A stretch of 36,891 nt of DNA from a virus (Duplodnaviria; Caudoviricetes), in IMG/VR virus record IMGVR_UViG_3300043428_000023, positions 1-36,891 of that record, one strand, 5' to 3'. A program made the position numbers and the translations under genes. Below, piece after piece: positions 5,324 through 36,891 of this stretch (position 1 is the stretch's first letter; the number at the start of each line of letters is the position of its first letter). The notes under the pieces were generated by a model, which was not told where the DNA came from, did not search any database, and was given only the letters and a program-made list of their open reading frames with translations.

Positions 5324-6838
5324 TCAAAGACTAAGCGTAAAGGAAGGGTCATCCCACGGCGACGAGTGCGGTATGCCAGCGTCGTGCGACTCAACACCCA
5401 AAGCCATCGCAAGAGCGACCACGCCGTCGATCCGGCCCGATGATTTGGCCTTGGTCAGCTTGCGGTCGCCCGCTGGGCTGCGCTCTGCCACCGCGTTGGC
5501 GGCGCACATGTTCATCACCGGGTTTGCGCCGTGCCTGATCTTGCGCTCTGCCACCAGCCGCTCCAGCTTATCAACCGCCGGGGCCATGTCCTTAAAGCCC
5601 TGCCCAAACGGCTGCATCGGCAGGCTTACCCCGATAGTGTCGAGTTCCCGCGTAAAGTCATTGATGCGCCATCGGTCATAAGCCAGCAGTTGCAGGTCGT
5701 ATTGGTCAGCCGCGTCGGCCACTGCCTGCGCCACGACAGCCGGAATGATTACAGGTCCATCGATCAGCGTGATGAAACCTTGCTCCGCCCAAACATCGTA
5801 AGGCACCTTGTCTTCTTTGGCCCGCTCACGGATGCCCTGCGCTGGCATGAAGAACTGCGGCACGACGTGATAGATGCCGTCCTGCGGGAACACCATCACG
5901 AAGGCCGTCAAGTCCCGGCTGGCAGACAGGTCAAGCCCAGCATAGCACAGCGCGCCCGTCTCAACCTCTGGCTCCTCGGCGTTGGCCTCCCATTCGCTTC
6001 GGTTGAGGAACGGGCTGGTCGCCTCAATGCGCTGGTTTAGGAACAGCCAGCGAAAGCTGTTCTCCTTGGCGGGCAGGCGGTCGGCCTGCTTGGCGAAGTC
6101 CTCGATGTCGGTCAGGCTGCGGAACTCGCCCAAGGCTGGGTTGGCCGCCGCCCACGCTTCGCGATCCATCACCTCACAGTCTTCCGGCGCGGTGTAGACA
6201 TGGCTGACGATCCGCTTGTCCTTGGCGTTCTTGGCGTCGTCCAGCCAGATGCTGAACAGGTCGCCGTCCGTCGCCGCCTGCGTGCTGATGGCGATCAGGA
6301 GCGGATCGTCATGTGCGCCCTGTGCAGTTTCGATGGCTTCGATGAAAGCATCGGTCGGCCCGCGCACCTGACCAACCTCGTCCAAGATCGCCAGCACAGG
6401 AGAAAGGCCGTGGGCCGTCCCGGCTTCCGCGCTGATGGCTTTGTATTCCACGTTCATCGGCAGACCGATCAGCGATTTCTGCGACGGCACGATCCGCACG
6501 ATCTTGGAAAGTTCCGGCGAAAGCCTGACCATCTTTTCGGCCAGCTTGAAAACGAGGCTGGCTTGGTCGCGTGATCTAGCGCCGCTGATGATCTGGCTGT
6601 TCTGCCGTGCCTCTGGGCCGACGATATGGGCAAGCAGGATCGCGGCGATCAGGGCCGACTTGCCGTTCTTGCGACCGACCGACAAATAGGCGCGGCTGGT
6701 CCCGACCTTGTTGTCGTAGATGTCCAAGATGAACTTGCGCTGAAAAGCCATCAGCTTCAGAGGCTGGCCAACGTGCTTCCCTTCAGGAACCTTGCAATAA
6801 CGCTCAATGAAGGCGCAAACCTTTTCGCCGCGTGTCAT
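5324..6838 (-). CDS. terL: Terminase large subunit (Terminase_1, HK97-like cos type)
   Basis: Walker A GRKNGKS, Walker B ILDE, ISTQA coupling motif, nuclease GLDLS..DLTA and IDGVVALAMA. Confidence 0.97.
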   Translation of the reverse strand: MTRGEKVCAFIERYCKVPEGKHVGQPLKLMAFQRKFILDIYDNKVGTSRAYLSVGRKNGKSALIAAILLAHIVGPEARQNSQIISGARSRDQASLVFKLAEKMVRLSPELSKIVRIVPSQKSLIGLPMNVEYKAISAEAGTAHGLSPVLAILDEVGQVRGPTDAFIEAIETAQGAHDDPLLIAISTQAATDGDLFSIWLDDAKNAKDKRIVSHVYTAPEDCEVMDREAWAAANPALGEFRSLTDIEDFAKQADRLPAKENSFRWLFLNQRIEATSPFLNRSEWEANAEEPEVETGALCYAGLDLSASRDLTAFVMVFPQDGIYHVVPQFFMPAQGIRERAKEDKVPYDVWAEQGFITLIDGPVIIPAVVAQAVADAADQYDLQLLAYDRWRINDFTRELDTIGVSLPMQPFGQGFKDMAPAVDKLERLVAERKIRHGANPVMNMCAANAVAERSPAGDRKLTKAKSSGRIDGVVALAMALGVESHDAGIPHSSPWDDPSFTLSL

Positions 6839-7314
6839 CAGTTAGGCCTTGCAAGCAGATCGTCTTGGAAGTCGGCCCCATCTTCGATGGCCTTTGTGCT
6901 GTCTCGACGCTTGCCAATGTCTCGGGCCTCACCGCTTTGCGCGCGCGCGTGAAGGCCGAGGCTGCGGCGGTAAGACAGGATCGTGCTGGCGTGCATCTGT
7001 ATCACAGTCTTGCGCGGATTGACGACAGGCGTTCCCTTCTCGGTAAATGAAACCGAACCTTCAACGCGAAGTCTTTGCTGCTCCATGTTGAGATCGGCCA
7101 TCGTCCTTGCCAGCATCGCTGCCAACTCCAACTGGTGCGCCGTCCACTCGCTGCGTGCGAACTCCTCCAGCACGTTTGCAAAGAACGGCAGGTCGCAGTC
7201 CTCAAGCGGAACAGTGCTTGGCGGTGAAATCTGCTTCTGCGCGCTCTGCATGACCGCCACCGCTTCGGATGCGCTGGTGATCGGAGCCTTTCGTGGCGTT
7301 TTTTTGCTCGTCAT
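6838..7314 (-). CDS. terS: Terminase small subunit (start revised from 7365 to ATG 7314)
   Basis: GAGGTG RBS before MTSKK; GTPVVNP and SLGLHARA motifs typical of P27-type TerS; directly upstream of terL. Confidence 0.88.
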   Translation of the reverse strand: MTSKKTPRKAPITSASEAVAVMQSAQKQISPPSTVPLEDCDLPFFANVLEEFARSEWTAHQLELAAMLARTMADLNMEQQRLRVEGSVSFTEKGTPVVNPRKTVIQMHASTILSYRRSLGLHARAQSGEARDIGKRRDSTKAIEDGADFQDDLLARPN

Positions 7315-7329
7315 GTCGTTTTCACCTCG

Positions 7330-7416
7330 GAAAATCTGTATTTGCGCTAAAAGAAAGATGGGCAACGGGTTTGACTGCCCCAGCCCCTAGAGATGCGACC
7401 CACCCCCCCGTGCTGG
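7330..7416 (-). other. Candidate cos/packaging region upstream of terS
   Basis: Non-coding stretch with GGGGGGGTGGGTC G-run immediately upstream of terS in an HNH-terS-terL phage; inferred from HK97-like organisation. Confidence 0.5.
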
Positions 7417-8208
7417 TCACGTCTCGGCCTCCAGCATGATGACTTCCATGTCCACGCTCACCGCGCCCGTGCCGTTGCTGACCTTTGCCAGCACGCCCAT
7501 GTCTGTCAGTTCTGGGAACTTGATCGGCACGTCAAAGTTGATAGTAACTGACTGCGTGATCCCGATCAGTTCCTGCATCTTCTTGATGGGCTGATAAGGC
7601 GCGCTGGCTTGCAAGATGCCTTCGCGCTTCATGATCAGGATGTCGGTGGTCTTGGTGCCGTCCACGTTAATCTGCGCTGATGTCAGAAGGCCGACGTGAT
7701 TGCGAGGCACTGTGATCGACCCGATGCCTGTTGATGCGGATGGAAAGCCGTTGAGTTGTATTTGCGCCCAATCCTCACCGCCAGTAGATCGCTCAATGGT
7801 GATGTTGCCCGCGTGCGATCCTGCTGACTGCGTGCCGTATGTGCCGCTTTCGTAGACTTCAGCGAGATACAGGCGGATAAAACTTTGCGTTGTTGCTGCC
7901 GATGCTGATGTGCCTGCCGTGGCGATGATCTCGGTGATCTCATCCCCGCTGGCGTTTAGGCCCCACAGCTTCACAGAACGCGCACCATCACCGTTGGCCG
8001 TGTCTGCCGCGTTGCCACCCGCCTTGATGCGAAGTTGCACCGCGTTGGCTGGCTGTGGCGTGCGGTAAACGCCGATGTCTGAGACAGGTGTGTATGTGGT
8101 CGGGCATGAAATGTTGCGACCGAACTGATGATGGATGTGCGCTTGGAACATATTGCCCCGCGCAATGTGGTGTGACCACGACAGGCTATTCTTTTGGCGG
8201 ATTTCCAC
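7417..8208 (-). CDS. Hypothetical 263 aa beta-rich protein (possible virion component) between HNH and terS
   Basis: Long ORF overlapping the HNH stop; Gly/Thr/Ala-rich, DTANGDGARSVKLWGL...SFIRL...AGNITI. Confidence 0.8.
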   Translation of the reverse strand: MEIRQKNSLSWSHHIARGNMFQAHIHHQFGRNISCPTTYTPVSDIGVYRTPQPANAVQLRIKAGGNAADTANGDGARSVKLWGLNASGDEITEIIATAGTSASAATTQSFIRLYLAEVYESGTYGTQSAGSHAGNITIERSTGGEDWAQIQLNGFPSASTGIGSITVPRNHVGLLTSAQINVDGTKTTDILIMKREGILQASAPYQPIKKMQELIGITQSVTINFDVPIKFPELTDMGVLAKVSNGTGAVSVDMEVIMLEAET

Positions 8209-8569
8209 GGCGTTTCACTCCCGGATGGTTATCATCGATGGGCCAGCCATCATTGCCTATTGTAACATCAAAGCCCCGGTTCTCAATCGACTGAATGATG
8301 CCACTGTGATGCGCCCAGCAGACGCTTTGCAGGTTGTCCAAATTGAAGAACAGATCGAGGTCGCCTTTGTGCGGCTTGATGTGGTGAACGACTGCTGAGT
8401 TTGGGTGTGATACGCCGCGCCGCAGAATAACACCGCAGCCCTTGTGCTGGCATCGGTAGGCATCGCGGAACAAGGCTTGCTCACGCAGGATGCGCCATTG
8501 CTTGGTGGCGTATAGCTTTCGGTATTGCGTGGCTTCCTCGGATCGCCAGCGTTCTATCATCCTTGCCAT
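8186..8569 (-). CDS. HNH endonuclease (HK97 gp74-like packaging accessory); start revised to 8569
   Basis: W..LRE..L.RD.Y.CQ..GC...VVHHIKPHKGD..LFF..DNLQSVC..HH; GAGGTG RBS before ATG 8569. Confidence 0.93.
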   Translation of the reverse strand: MARMIERWRSEEATQYRKLYATKQWRILREQALFRDAYRCQHKGCGVILRRGVSHPNSAVVHHIKPHKGDLDLFFNLDNLQSVCWAHHSGIIQSIENRGFDVTIGNDGWPIDDNHPGVKRRGNPPKE

Positions 8570-8629
8570 GATGTCACCTCTTGACCGCAAGGTAAGCGAA
8601 GGTGCTGCCATTGGGATGGTGCGGGCTGG

Positions 8630-9148
8630 TCATCCTGTTTTTTTAAACCTAATCGCCATCAGGATGATTGCCGCGACAACTGTCATCCACAGTTTTCCCA
8701 CAATCTGGCCGGAGATGAAGTCAAGAGAGCCAAAGGCCATCCATAAAAACACCGCGCTGTCTATCGCTGCGCCAACGACGCCGGATGCTGCAACAGCCAA
8801 AGCGAGACGCTTGCGCTGGAGGGGAGCATAGATTGCAAGGTCGGCCAACTCGGAAAGAAGAAACGCGGCGACAGACGCCACGACCAGCGCAGGCGGTGAG
8901 AACTGAAAAGAAAGGACAGCACCAAACAAAATCGCAGCGATTGCCCATTGCCAGCCAAGCAGGCGATGCACGGCATCACGCAGCACCAAAGCCGCACCAA
9001 TCATCAGCACGCCAGAAGGAGCCATGAGGCCAAATCCTACTGGGATCAGGCAAGGTCCATCTGGGATGCACTGGCCGACGTTGCCTATCATCCAGTTTGC
9101 CGCTGGTATTGTTGCCGCATATGCGGCCAAGGCGATATATCCGTTCAT
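8630..9148 (-). CDS. yhhQ: VUT/YhhQ-family (DUF165) queuosine-precursor transporter-like membrane protein; start revised to 9148
   Basis: About 6 hydrophobic helices; AANW, G..LVLRD.VH..LG, AS..AFLLSE..D..IY, GAAIDS.VF..AFG and GQIVGK motifs; ATGA overlap with the upstream gene's stop. Confidence 0.85.
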   Translation of the reverse strand: MNGYIALAAYAATIPAANWMIGNVGQCIPDGPCLIPVGFGLMAPSGVLMIGAALVLRDAVHRLLGWQWAIAAILFGAVLSFQFSPPALVVASVAAFLLSELADLAIYAPLQRKRLALAVAASGVVGAAIDSAVFLWMAFGSLDFISGQIVGKLWMTVVAAIILMAIRFKKTG

Positions 9149-9825
9149 ACTGGAAGGTCCATTTGTTGAGGGCGAATTTCCCAGCGCGCTGGGCATTGTG
9201 ATCCATCCCATCGATCAGCCATCTTGCGGGGTGTCTGATGCGGGAGATGGTGATTGCGTGCAAGATCGGTGCTGTCTACCGAAGCAAAAGGATATTGCTT
9301 CCCAGACAACTGCATCCCGCGAAGCATGTGAAGCCAAGGCATTCGCTTGTGGCGCAAGGTCAGTTCATTGAAGGCTTCATCCATGCGGCGGCACCAAGCG
9401 TCAGACAGCACGATTGCATATTCTGCCGTTGATCCCACACAGACGCGAGGCCATTCCTCACATAGCCGAAGGAGCCGATAGATTGGCTCATCCATATGCC
9501 AAACAGGCGCGCCCTTGTGGCCGTGAGGCCACTCACGCAAAAGAGCATCCTGCTCCTGCGTTCCGGCGTCAATGACATCAGGGATCACGGCCCATGTGGT
9601 TGGGTAGTCAAGCCATTGATCGCACCACTGATAATAGCCGTTCCAGTTTGTCTGTTTACCAGATTTCCAAGCTGAAAACGCGCCGTTATCCAACATCACA
9701 GACTGACCGATCATGTGAACCCGTGCGACATCCTGCGGCGCTGCGTGCGAGACGCAGAAGCATCTACCAGCAAGTTCCATTATGGCATCAATTGGCGTTA
9801 TGGGCGTGCCGTGATAATGGATCAT
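9145..9825 (-). CDS. TGT/DpdA-like base-exchange transglycosylase (divergent, 226 aa); start revised from 10071 to 9825
   Basis: MIHYHGTP start with ATGA overlap; MLDNGAFS (cf. TGT DSGG[FY]), IPDVI, PVWH, LHML and SVDST match the conserved Asp/His positions of the TGT barrel; adjacent to a YhhQ-like gene. Confidence 0.7.
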   Translation of the reverse strand: MIHYHGTPITPIDAIMELAGRCFCVSHAAPQDVARVHMIGQSVMLDNGAFSAWKSGKQTNWNGYYQWCDQWLDYPTTWAVIPDVIDAGTQEQDALLREWPHGHKGAPVWHMDEPIYRLLRLCEEWPRVCVGSTAEYAIVLSDAWCRRMDEAFNELTLRHKRMPWLHMLRGMQLSGKQYPFASVDSTDLARNHHLPHQTPRKMADRWDGSQCPARWEIRPQQMDLPV

Positions 9826-10043
9826 CTCTTTACCGCCAAATACTGAAACGTGCTGCCATAGGCTCGCTTGCAGAACAAGAATGCCAGCTTGTCTGTCTCG
9901 GCTCTGGCAGCCGCGTGGCGATGGATGCCGCCGCAATGCTGGCCGATATGGTAGACGATGCGGTCGCCCCTTTGCGCCTCTGCAAGAGCGACAAGCAGGG
10001 CATCCGGCCTTGTGTCGCCCGTGATGTAGATGGTCTGGCTCAT
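9822..10043 (-). CDS. Hypothetical protein (73 aa)
   Basis: ORF with ATGA coupling to the transglycosylase-like gene; GDRIVYHIG and FQYLAVKR patterns. Confidence 0.7.
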   Translation of the reverse strand: MSQTIYITGDTRPDALLVALAEAQRGDRIVYHIGQHCGGIHRHAAARAETDKLAFLFCKRAYGSTFQYLAVKR

Positions 10044-10049
10044 TCACAT

Positions 10050-10320
10050 GCCCCATATAATGTTTGCACATTACGCTGGAAGATACACATGCGTGATAAC
10101 TTCCAAGCCATTGTCCTATAAGTCTTTTCTTTATATATTATATGTTTACACATATATATATACTTACTTATTCCAAGGAAGTGACCCTCATAGGGACACC
10201 TGATGGCTGTGATATTATGACTTATGCAGGTGTAAACATTGCAATGTTTAAACTTGCCTTTTTCTCTAGCATTATCAATACCTTGCATAATATCTGGCGC
10301 GCTTAACTTCATGTGTAACA
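10050..10320. other. AT-rich non-coding region with ATGTTT(A/G)(C/A)AC repeats: candidate replication origin
   Basis: Appears to be the most AT-rich stretch in the window (TATATATATA); repeats at ~10060, 10142, 10230 (inverted) and 10244; 18-bp palindrome TAAACATTGCAATGTTTA at 10233..10250; directly downstream of the DUF3987-type gene. Confidence 0.6.
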
Positions 10321-11829
10321 TCACGCCACCACCCAGACATCTGGTATCTTGCCCTTCCAAGCCTTTTTGCCAGCCTCTCGTCTGATCATGCCCGCGCTAG
10401 CCATCTTCATCAGGATCGGCTCTATGATTTCTGGCTTCATTCTCATGCGGTTTGCCAGCACCTTGGTCGATGCACCTTTGTCCGGGTCAATGTAGTTGAT
10501 GACCCGCGCTGCAATGGCTTCCTCTGGGCGGTCCTTGGAGTTATCGTTGGCGAACACCAATTTGATCTTTGCATCAAGTTCCGCCCTGACGTAAGCGAAG
10601 GCCCAGCGCACATGGTCTGCCGTTCTCTGAGCGGTTGGGATAGCCAGAATAAAGCTGATCTTGGCTACCAATTCATAAGCGCGGCGGATCATGGCAACGG
10701 ATGCTTCGCCTGTGTTCTCGCCCATCTCATCTGCATAAGCGTGAAGCCACTTGGACACCTTGCGAAGCATCTCGCTGGCGTCTTCGTCTGTCTTTACGAG
10801 TTCACGATCACCAGAATATTCCACACGCCCGCCACTGGTCATCAAGTCACAGTTACCGCCGTTAAAAATCTGAGACAGCCGCATGGCTAGATTTTCAGGC
10901 ATCGGGCGCTTGCGAAAGTTCTCTCGTTCTTCTGGGTTGTTGTCCGTTTCTGCCACGATGATAGCACGGCCCACAAAGCCCTGCGTTGCTGTTTCACCAT
11001 CCATGATCTGATCGAAGGTGCCGGGGGTTGTGAAGCCAACCACAGAAAGAAACGGCCTTTCAAGACCCTGATCCACCATGTTCAGCATACGCTGTGCGCG
11101 GGCGATTAGATCGGCACGTCCATCATCTTCTGCTTTGGCCAGCATCCCGCCGAACATCTTGCGAAGTTCTCGCTTGGTGTCGCCCTGCAAAAGCATTCGG
11201 CTATTGGCCTTTGAATAGCCCGACATGATCGCGCCGAACACGCTTTCGAGATATGCCGCACCGCCGCGCTTCTGAGCATTACGGACCTTGATCAAAAAGA
11301 TGCCGATCTCGTCTATGATGTAATACGCCGACTGATGTTCGATCAGGTTCCGCATGATCTCTTGCTCGGATTTAATGCCGCCTTGCAGCGCGTAATGCAC
11401 GCCCGCCGCAATGTGCAGATCGGTCAGAGCCTGCATAACCGCCTCTTTGCCTGTGGCGCTGGCAGCCACGCAGAAAGCCAGCATATTGGCTGTGACGCCA
11501 TCCCGCAGGTCTTCGTGGCGAAGGCCGCCGATGTTACCAATGGCAGAAATGGCAGATGCTACGGCCAAGCGGCGGCGGGGATAACGGCACTGGCTGTCGA
11601 TCCAAGCGGCCACATCACCAACAAACCCGGGCGGGGTAAGCAGATCCAGCCCGTCAAGTGGAAATGGCGGGGGAAAGCGGTCGTTGCTTTCTGGTGCTTC
11701 TGGGACTGGCGGTGCGAAATCTTCCGCGCTGAACTCATCTTGAGAATAGGTCTGCGCTATCTGCGATGATTGCCCGAACTTGGCCCCGTTATAGCCCGCC
11801 TCAAAGTCTGCGAAATCGTCGGCACTCAT
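10321..11829 (-). CDS. DUF3987-type P-loop ATPase/helicase-like replication protein with C-terminal winged helix
   Basis: PPGFVGDVAAWI, degenerate Walker A AASATGKE, Walker B YYIIDEIG, GFTTP and GFVGRAII; no recognisable primase domain. Confidence 0.75.
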   Translation of the reverse strand: MSADDFADFEAGYNGAKFGQSSQIAQTYSQDEFSAEDFAPPVPEAPESNDRFPPPFPLDGLDLLTPPGFVGDVAAWIDSQCRYPRRRLAVASAISAIGNIGGLRHEDLRDGVTANMLAFCVAASATGKEAVMQALTDLHIAAGVHYALQGGIKSEQEIMRNLIEHQSAYYIIDEIGIFLIKVRNAQKRGGAAYLESVFGAIMSGYSKANSRMLLQGDTKRELRKMFGGMLAKAEDDGRADLIARAQRMLNMVDQGLERPFLSVVGFTTPGTFDQIMDGETATQGFVGRAIIVAETDNNPEERENFRKRPMPENLAMRLSQIFNGGNCDLMTSGGRVEYSGDRELVKTDEDASEMLRKVSKWLHAYADEMGENTGEASVAMIRRAYELVAKISFILAIPTAQRTADHVRWAFAYVRAELDAKIKLVFANDNSKDRPEEAIAARVINYIDPDKGASTKVLANRMRMKPEIIEPILMKMASAGMIRREAGKKAWKGKIPDVWVVA

Positions 11830-36735: not shown

Positions 36736-36891
36736 TCACTCGAGCAATGCCCGAAGCACGATCACAGCCGTGTAGCCACGGCCATCAGGGTCTCTTGTAA
36801 CACTGTGGGTCTGGAAAATCAATTCGACCAGCGTGAACCCGGTGACGGTCACGCTTGTCTCTTGGCGGTGCAAAGCCGCCTGCACAGCCTC
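36736..36891 (-). CDS. Tail terminator / DUF3168-type protein, 3' part
   Basis: Reads EAVQAALHRQETSVTVTGFTLVELIFQTHSVTRDPDGRGYTAVIVLRALLE*; the first three codons (EAV) duplicate the last three of the 1..264 part. Confidence 0.85.
   Translation of the reverse strand, partial: EAVQAALHRQETSVTVTGFTLVELIFQTHSVTRDPDGRGYTAVIVLRALLE

Follow-up and report, generated by a model that had tools for sequence, protein, structure and literature searches.

Stand-alone phage DpdA proteins, and the pairing of DpdA with a YhhQ-type importer as the only 7-deazaguanine-related genes of a phage, are already in print (Hutinet 2019, PMC6884629). Supplementary Data 1 of that study gives nine phages (SPN3UB, BTP1, SEN1, SfI, Athena1, HK106, PEAT2, SE131, and 7-11) as carrying DpdA without pathway genes, and tabulates DpdA plus YhhQ only for phiLM21, CDKM15, and eHP-6 (Hutinet 2019, PMC6884629). 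Two stand-alone members have been characterized chemically. DNA of Salmonella phage 7-11 contains 50 dADG per million nucleotides, or 0.02% of G (PMC6884629), and DNA of Pantoea phage MED16 contains 354 per million, or 0.13% of G (PMC8306585); these values compute to ~9 and ~33 dADG per genome, respectively. Hutinet suggests that trace dADG may arise by oxidation of dPreQ0 (PMC6884629), and the portions of the published accounts drawn on here do not link dADG to dpdA by deletion in either phage (PMC6884629, PMC8306585). MED16 DNA is cut by EcoRI, BamHI, EcoRV, HaeIII, NdeI, HhaI, and EcoRII, and resisted only two Dam-sensitive enzymes among those tested (PMC8306585).

The window analyzed here is the whole 36,891-nt stretch of virus genome IMGVR_UViG_3300043428_000023, with a CheckV completeness of 100%. 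The contig closes as a circle through a 9-nt terminal overlap (36883-36891 / 1-9) left from assembly, and the circle opens inside a tail gene whose reading frame continues across both ends, in agreement with the preliminary description, which had called the genome apparently complete. A scan of 75 of the 265 ORFs picked out terminase, portal, capsid, tail, lysin, helicase, and primase genes, giving a whole siphovirus-like genome. The sequencing runs containing the stretch are labelled freshwater or lake water, and the host is probably alphaproteobacterial, judging from a GTA-type tail chaperone and the closest prophage homologues. The features of the locus are as follows.

8602..9849 (1,248 nt, no strand assigned): cassette segment with both genes, absent in empty-site relatives (joint 8601->9850)
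8630..9148, minus strand: YhhQ/VUT (COG1738-type) membrane protein, 172 aa, predicted 7-deazaguanine base importer (PF02592)
9145..9825, minus strand: predicted DpdA-family DNA guanine transglycosylase, 226 aa, of the short singleton "DNG" clade (phrog_887, fold, tree)
9822..10043, minus strand: 73-aa resident phage gene, a slot marker with no function assigned (in 30 of 34 close relatives)
8574..8613, minus strand: displaced 3' end copy of the 73-aa gene at the insertion boundary (imperfect direct repeat with 9822-9861)

The three minus-strand ORFs lie where the preliminary description had placed them and are joined by the ATGA overlaps it reported. Its three-gene cassette shrinks to two genes: in close relatives the 73-aa gene is present in 30 of 34 and the pair in 2 of 34, and the 73-aa gene sits beside only 3 of 87 dpdA loci, so that it was rejected as a third component. 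The 73-aa protein has no Pfam, PHROG, or NCBIfam match. Six-frame searches of the genome find no QueD, QueC, FolE, radical SAM/QueE, or QueF, upholding the earlier claim that biosynthesis genes are absent; control genomes were positive in 10/14 (QueD), 13/14 (QueC), 11/14 (FolE), 14/14 (radical SAM/QueE), and 7/14 (QueF) cases. A QueF-L-like profile, searched without a positive control, likewise has no match in the genome. GC3 is 0.55 and 0.57 in the two cassette genes, 0.77 in the terminase, portal, and capsid genes, and 0.52 in the tape measure gene; low GC3 was rejected as proof of foreign origin, the cassette genes not falling below the tape measure. A promoter scan gives 2 sites against 2.2 expected by chance, and the RNA data, two 151-nt contigs in one run that match a closely related version of the genes, do not suffice for a statement on expression.

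The 226-aa protein matches phrog_887, annotated "queuine tRNA-ribosyltransferase", at E 5.7e-49, and the same group contains the DpdA of phages 9g and 7-11. Its AlphaFold model is a bare TIM barrel (pLDDT 90.8). The solved structures that match best are Cap10 (Z 14.8), arcTGT (14.8), PdxJ (13.2), bacterial TGT (12.8), and bacterial DpdA (12.7); TGT-family proteins thus fill four of the top five VIA rows (Z 12.7-14.8, rmsd 3.1-3.3, 199-214 residues aligned), to be read against unrelated barrels that score up to Z 13.2. The BFVD list is headed by viral TGT/DpdA-like models. The TGT/DpdA-like fold that had been proposed from motifs is therefore borne out by the model and its top matches. Sequence searches are less telling: Pfam, NCBIfam, and PDB sequence searches with the 226-aa protein yield no TGT match, and the PDB searches, with the protein and then with a profile, give no meaningful match at all. 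The Pfam DpdA model PF23859 is unmatched by the 226-aa protein and by the 7-11 and SPN3UB proteins, and phiLM21 gp25 matches it at 2e-43, which indicates that the model does not cover the DNG clade. The enzyme group as a whole comprises at least 7,966 clusters at 90% identity.

The DNGAFS, PDV, PVWH, LHML, and VDST motifs noted before are all found in the protein. All 49 homologues compared have D46, D83, H110, and D184 unchanged; the three aspartates align with those of the 9g, CAjan, and Rosebush DpdA, and H110 with their His. The site of the bacterial (Salmonella Montevideo) DpdA consists of Asp95, Phe99, Asp130, His181, and Asp256 (PMC10164549). By motif, D46, D83, H110, and D184 would correspond to Asp95, Asp130, His181, and Asp256, and the predicted active-site residues of the 226-aa protein are D46, F50, D83, H110, and D184.

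The enzyme belongs with the stand-alone phage DpdAs. A tblastn search with the 226-aa protein matches 105 phage records, among them all nine of the DpdA-without-pathway phages named above, with E 8e-26 to 7-11 and 6e-39 to SPN3UB; the accessions checked (YP_004782407 for 7-11, YP_007011024 for SPN3UB) are both DpdA per Hutinet. Identity is 36% to the 7-11 protein and 42% to MED16 gp38. In an 18-protein tree, to be read with a long-branch warning, all 14 DNG proteins lie on one side of a 98/100 branch, so the protein forms one tree clade with the singleton "DpdA-only" group 3 of Hutinet 2019 (7-11, SPN3UB, BTP1, SEN1, SfI, Athena1; PMC6884629) and MED16 gp38. It shares with 7-11 and MED16 the LDNGAF, PxWH, and DS motifs, the lack of a zinc motif, and the lack of preQ0 genes, but YhhQ, present in this phage, is absent from their entire genomes. 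Within the clade, the 226-aa protein falls into a sub-branch with Pam5, RHph_N3_2, Mae-JY30, and DMCA, and the chemically tested 7-11 and MED16 fall outside it. The supplement of Cui 2023 (PMC10516641), as far as consulted, has no rows for SPN3UB, BTP1, Pam5, Athena1, SEN1, phiLM21, MED16, or CDKM15, which would leave the DNG clade outside its DpdA3/DpdA4-centred table.

Two features that the preliminary description had treated as distinctive are ordinary within this family. Asn in place of the TGT Ser (DNG for DSG) also occurs in the chemically characterized 7-11 and MED16 proteins, and DNG as the sign of a new clade was rejected, as it is found in 120 of 120 proteins among the matches listed. 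The 226-aa protein contains no CxCxxC or CxxC, nor does the DpdA of 9g, CAjan, Rosebush, 7-11, or phiLM21 (5 of 5), and absent zinc ligands are normal for phage DpdA (PMC5699537). The accompanying suggestion that the base may differ from that of characterized clades has some backing, in that the base of this clade is dADG, not dPreQ0 or dG+.

The more distant systems differ in both enzyme and supply. The DpdA1 of 9g and CAjan resembles the present protein in its alignable aspartates and His, and CAjan also encodes a YhhQ. However, the 9g and CAjan enzymes are 306-317 aa long, carry DSG, and are only ~24% identical to the 226-aa protein over short stretches; these phages encode the full FolE/QueD/QueE/QueC pathway and modify ~25-30% of G, as dense dG+ / dPreQ0. 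The DpdA of the bacterial Dpd system (S. Montevideo, PDB 7UI4) is alike in fold (Z 12.7) and in the pattern of catalytic residues, and its system makes sparse dADG, as found in DNG-clade members. It differs in being a 413-aa protein with a zinc site and a large insertion that requires DpdB and ATP, and DpdC for dADG; neither DpdB nor DpdC is found among the recurrent neighbours of the phage gene.

The 172-aa protein passes the cut-off of Pfam Vut_1 (PF02592; 41.3 bits against 27.2) and has a multi-pass topology, consistent with the YhhQ-type transporter proposed before. Against TIGR00697 (queuosine precursor transporter) it scores 40 bits, under the cut-off of 50.95, so its substrate is uncertain. 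It has 5 hydrophobic segments; six are proposed for Escherichia coli YhhQ, and the YhhQ family has subgroups with differing predicted substrates (PMC5372724). Identity is 36% to CAjan YhhQ (gp41) and 64-66% to gp26 of Sinorhizobium phage phiLM21, in which dpdA (gp25) and yhhQ (gp26) are likewise adjacent. The phiLM21 DpdA, however, is of another group (DSG motif, PF23859, phrog_1279), and its BLAST match to the 226-aa protein is not significant; the same importer is thus paired with two DpdA groups. Clostridium phage CDKM15 and halophage eHP-6, compared by table entry alone, also have DpdA and YhhQ without biosynthesis genes.

The pairing recurs widely. A neighbourhood survey covered the 80 best of 592 viral matches and 7 annotated records; these 87 dpdA loci reduce to 43 groups at 85% identity, and the partner profiles derive from the loci themselves. 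A nearby YhhQ is found in 28 of the 43 viral groups, in 19 of them alone and in 9 together with a small T-fold protein that is QueF-L-like. This small protein occurs in 13 groups and a QueD-like protein in 5; 6 groups have no such partner. Among loci in bacterial genomes (best 80 of 91), YhhQ is found in 22, a QueF-L-like protein in 19, a QueD-like protein in 6, and none in 34. That yhhQ or other 7-deazaguanine-related partners recur beside dpdA answers the gene-neighbourhood question raised with the preliminary description, and, as these partners all handle 7-deazaguanines, supports a 7-deazaguanine as the substrate class. DUF6378 (7 of 43 groups) and PAPS-reductase-like genes (3 + 3 of 43) are taken as generic phage neighbours.

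The genomic position of the pair supplies the best evidence here for a DNA target. A survey of the slot, anchored on the neighbouring primase, covered the best 80 of 100 matches. Of these, 34 loci have a primase at least 85% identical and 2 kb of downstream sequence; the 73-aa gene is present in 30 of them, and dpdA with yhhQ in 2. The slot contents were compared in 28 loci whose sequence extends 1.4 kb or more beyond the 73-aa gene: 10 carry an N6/N4 methyltransferase (one matching only partially, several nearly the same), 4 carry Mom, 2 carry dpdA and yhhQ, and 12 carry none of these. A slot shared with methyltransferases and Mom points to DNA as the target. Together with the dADG in 7-11 and MED16 DNA, this favours DNA over tRNA, the choice that had earlier been left open.

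The boundaries of the insert are sharp. The joint 8601->9850, an exact skip of 8602-9849, is present in contigs of two of four runs, from two studies, and the empty-site relatives L177 and L178 have a primase 98-99% identical. The displaced segment at 8574-8613 is identical to the gene end of empty-site L178 at 35 of 40 positions, compared with 28 of 40 for the present gene end, and the two copies in this genome (8574-8613, 9822-9861) agree at 29 of 40. L007 and L008 carry the pair in a form 96% identical, there without the 73-aa gene. The exact indel, the displaced gene end, and the copy elsewhere together indicate that the pair is a mobile unit replacing other DNA-modifying genes, and its insertion in this genome looks recent.

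Other occupants of this region were observed in passing. In L186, L202, L224, and L230 the same slot holds a gene followed by Mom; by motif, we take this gene to be ParB-like. In L187 an ABC-ATPase/GNAT fusion (7572-8669; phrog_11143) follows the ParB-like gene. Compared with 5324-8611 of this genome, relatives L179-L242 with primases 85-96% identical have unrelated terminase modules downstream, and this genome's HNH nuclease and 263-aa gene are common only to L177 and L178; the slot is therefore also a point of module exchange. The 263-aa gene (7417-8208; phrog_8198, function not assigned) is flanked by the HNH nuclease gene and the small terminase gene. An AT-rich intergenic stretch after the primase (10060-10322, ~10060-10320) contains repeated ATGTTTACAC-like words and inverted repeats and is a plausible candidate replication origin.

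Host genomes offer evidence on supply. The search covered 50 author-chosen genomes of 80, comprising 22 with a YhhQ cassette, 18 closer ones without YhhQ, and 10 with a QueF-L-like partner; many are MAGs whose completeness is not stated. Searches for queC came up empty in 12 of 22 importer-bearing host genomes compared with 1 of 28 without the importer (Fisher p 5e-5, raw), those for queD in 13 compared with 4, those for queF in 14 compared with 3, and those for tgt in 2 compared with 0. The unpublished genome G022 accounts for one of the queC-positive genomes and one YhhQ locus (L163); leaving it out gives 12 of 21. When 8 Solirubrobacterales, 5 Methylobacterium/Methylorubrum, and 7 Pseudomonas genomes are collapsed to one each and G015 and G022 are dropped, queC is absent in 5 of 13 compared with 1 of 18 (p=0.059). 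The association favours salvage as a trend. The earlier label "salvage-only" holds for the genes of the phage itself; with queC present in 10 of 22 importer-bearing hosts, precursor may also be made by the host.

Taken together, the locus is probably, with appreciable room for doubt, a mobile insert whose importer brings in a 7-deazaguanine base that DpdA swaps for a few guanines in phage DNA after replication. The pair occupies, as a 1,248-nt indel, a slot that relatives fill with other DNA-modifying genes. By family, the YhhQ protein would import preQ0 or a related base, removing the need for a precursor-making host. Fold and motifs suggest that D184 would attack the sugar C1' and D46 would serve as acid/base, like Asp256 and Asp95 of bacterial DpdA. 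From 7-11 and MED16, the product would probably be dADG (or dPreQ0) at tens of sites per genome, and such sparse marks might mask a few specific sites against host defence rather than the whole genome.

How densely the DNA is marked is the main point of dispute. It seems unlikely that the importer-fed enzyme modifies so many guanines that the DNA resists a broad set of restriction enzymes, as happens in 9g or CAjan. Membership of phrog_887 alongside the 9g DpdA speaks for it, and import could relieve the shortage that arises when host preQ0 is the sole source (PMC7544227): CAjan mutants dependent on host preQ0 have 12-fold lower modification, although YhhQ is dispensable in CAjan (PMC7544227). 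As 7-11 and MED16 have no YhhQ, their low dADG may also reflect supply. On the other hand, both tested clade members are sparsely modified, and MED16 DNA bearing the clade's mark is cut by the seven enzymes named above, which makes the broad restriction block of the preliminary description doubtful. Environmental precursor levels, moreover, are probably low.

Site avoidance in the genome adds little to either side. Six-base palindromes stand at 0.28 of expectation, CCAGG occurs 0 times against 109 expected, and GAATC once against 69; 14 of 64 six-base palindromes and CCWGG are absent, and AT-only palindromes are undepleted. GA-containing palindromes are spared in CAjan (observed/expected 0.87 vs 0.60) and 9g (0.90 vs 0.53), whereas no G-context class in this genome exceeds 0.33 and none is spared, a weak argument against dense marking given that cassette-free relatives are equally depleted. 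Pam5 and RHph_N3_2 show no GA relief and a weak pointer to CG/GC. Deriving a target motif from spared palindromes was accordingly rejected, as GA was recovered in the CAjan and 9g controls and no signal in this genome. Avoidance is a lineage trait shared with cassette-free relatives, and the cassette seems to have arrived recently; site counts are therefore a poor guide to modification density and need not reflect the cassette. Sparse marking is likelier than dense anti-restriction shielding, the stronger argument being by analogy with the chemistry of 7-11 and MED16. Host glycosylases attack deazaguanine DNA (10.1101/2025.10.29.685425), which could explain gain and loss of the cassette.

A version of the sparse-marking account would make the enzyme an orphan writer that copies, at the target site, the dADG self-mark of bacterial Dpd systems; this is an improbable refinement. 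The dADG base and its low density agree with the bacterial Dpd mark (PMC10516641, PMC8306585), and the slot is interchangeable with methyltransferases, orphan phage members of which copy host methylation in the same way. CAGCTG, the S. Montevideo DpdA site, is one of only 3 of 56 G-containing palindromes whose counts are 1-3 times the measured dADG in both 7-11 and MED16 (strand counts 10 and 76). However, the 1-3-fold range was set after the counts were seen, and 169 of 3,367 G-containing hexamers fit it too. CAGCTG is also strongly depleted in 7-11 (10 against 88 expected), Pam5 (2 against 44), and this genome (2 against 47), which is unexpected for a protected site, and the DpdB and DpdC partners are missing from the recurrent neighbours. 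A broader conjecture, to which we give similarly little weight, is that short DNG-clade DpdAs in general are sequence-specific dADG writers forging the Dpd self-mark, and that the YhhQ form is a two-gene plug-in for preQ0-less hosts, interchangeable with methyltransferases and Mom.

It is very unlikely that the enzyme acts on tRNA, or that the pair serves host translation by importing a queuosine precursor. The fold is common to tRNA transglycosylases, and 11 of 12 queC-less hosts retain tgt, so an imported base could incidentally end up in host tRNA. Yet H110 aligns with the DpdA His where bacterial TGT would have Q203, the bare 226-aa barrel has neither a zinc nor a tRNA-binding domain, the base of clade members is in DNA, the slot alternates with DNA-modifying genes, and a tgt deletion is not complemented by 9g DpdA (PMC6884629). 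Least probable of all is a Cap10-like binder or decoy for protein-linked or free deazaguanine, directed against type IV CBASS or QatABCD: Cap10, which acts on a protein-linked base and likewise has no zinc site (10.1101/2025.04.06.647259), ranks first in Foldseek (E 2e-4) and shares the highest Z (14.8, rmsd 3.1, 214 aligned). Against this, identity to Cap10 is only 9-12%, arcTGT reaches the same Z, and much better matches are found among viral DpdA-like proteins. Neither a CD-NTase nor a Cap9/QueC partner is among the recurrent neighbours, the genome has no QueC, and an importer would presumably raise, not lower, the substrate of such defences.

The known picture of 7-deazaguanine modification is unchanged by this cassette. 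What is added here is the 1,248-nt indel in a methyltransferase/Mom slot and the host queC trend; literature searches aimed at other points returned no paper on either the slot swap or the queC link. Slot exchange with methyltransferases and Mom is comparative evidence that the DNG group acts on phage DNA. The MED16 paper raises the role of sparse dADG and its formation without DpdC (PMC8306585), and a 226-aa enzyme with its own importer is a handy pair for these questions.

Other small genes adjoin dpdA elsewhere. The small QueF-L-like protein of the neighbourhood survey, unannotated, 77-100 aa long (phrog_37496), and absent from this phage genome, is encoded directly against dpdA or overlapping it in 13 of 43 viral groups and in 19 of 80 loci from bacteria (L029:3741-4004, L026:3771-4004, L060:3768-4004, and others). 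It has an invariant Cys-Pro, Val-Glu, and Glu, and its profile matches archaeal QueF-L (5JYX, E 1.5e-4). A QueD-like gene adjoins dpdA, with no other pathway gene nearby, in a short form in L004 (4705-5001), L024, and L043, scoring at or under the Pfam PTPS cut-off, and in full form in L027 and L062. In nine Solirubrobacterales loci (L118-L126), dpdA lies near a lytic-transglycosylase-like gene and an 878-aa gene, with yhhQ upstream in 8 of 9; queC is unseen in 7 of 8 Solirubrobacterales hosts of dpdA and yhhQ. The surroundings of these loci presumably belong to a conjugative element, which they resemble more than a phage.
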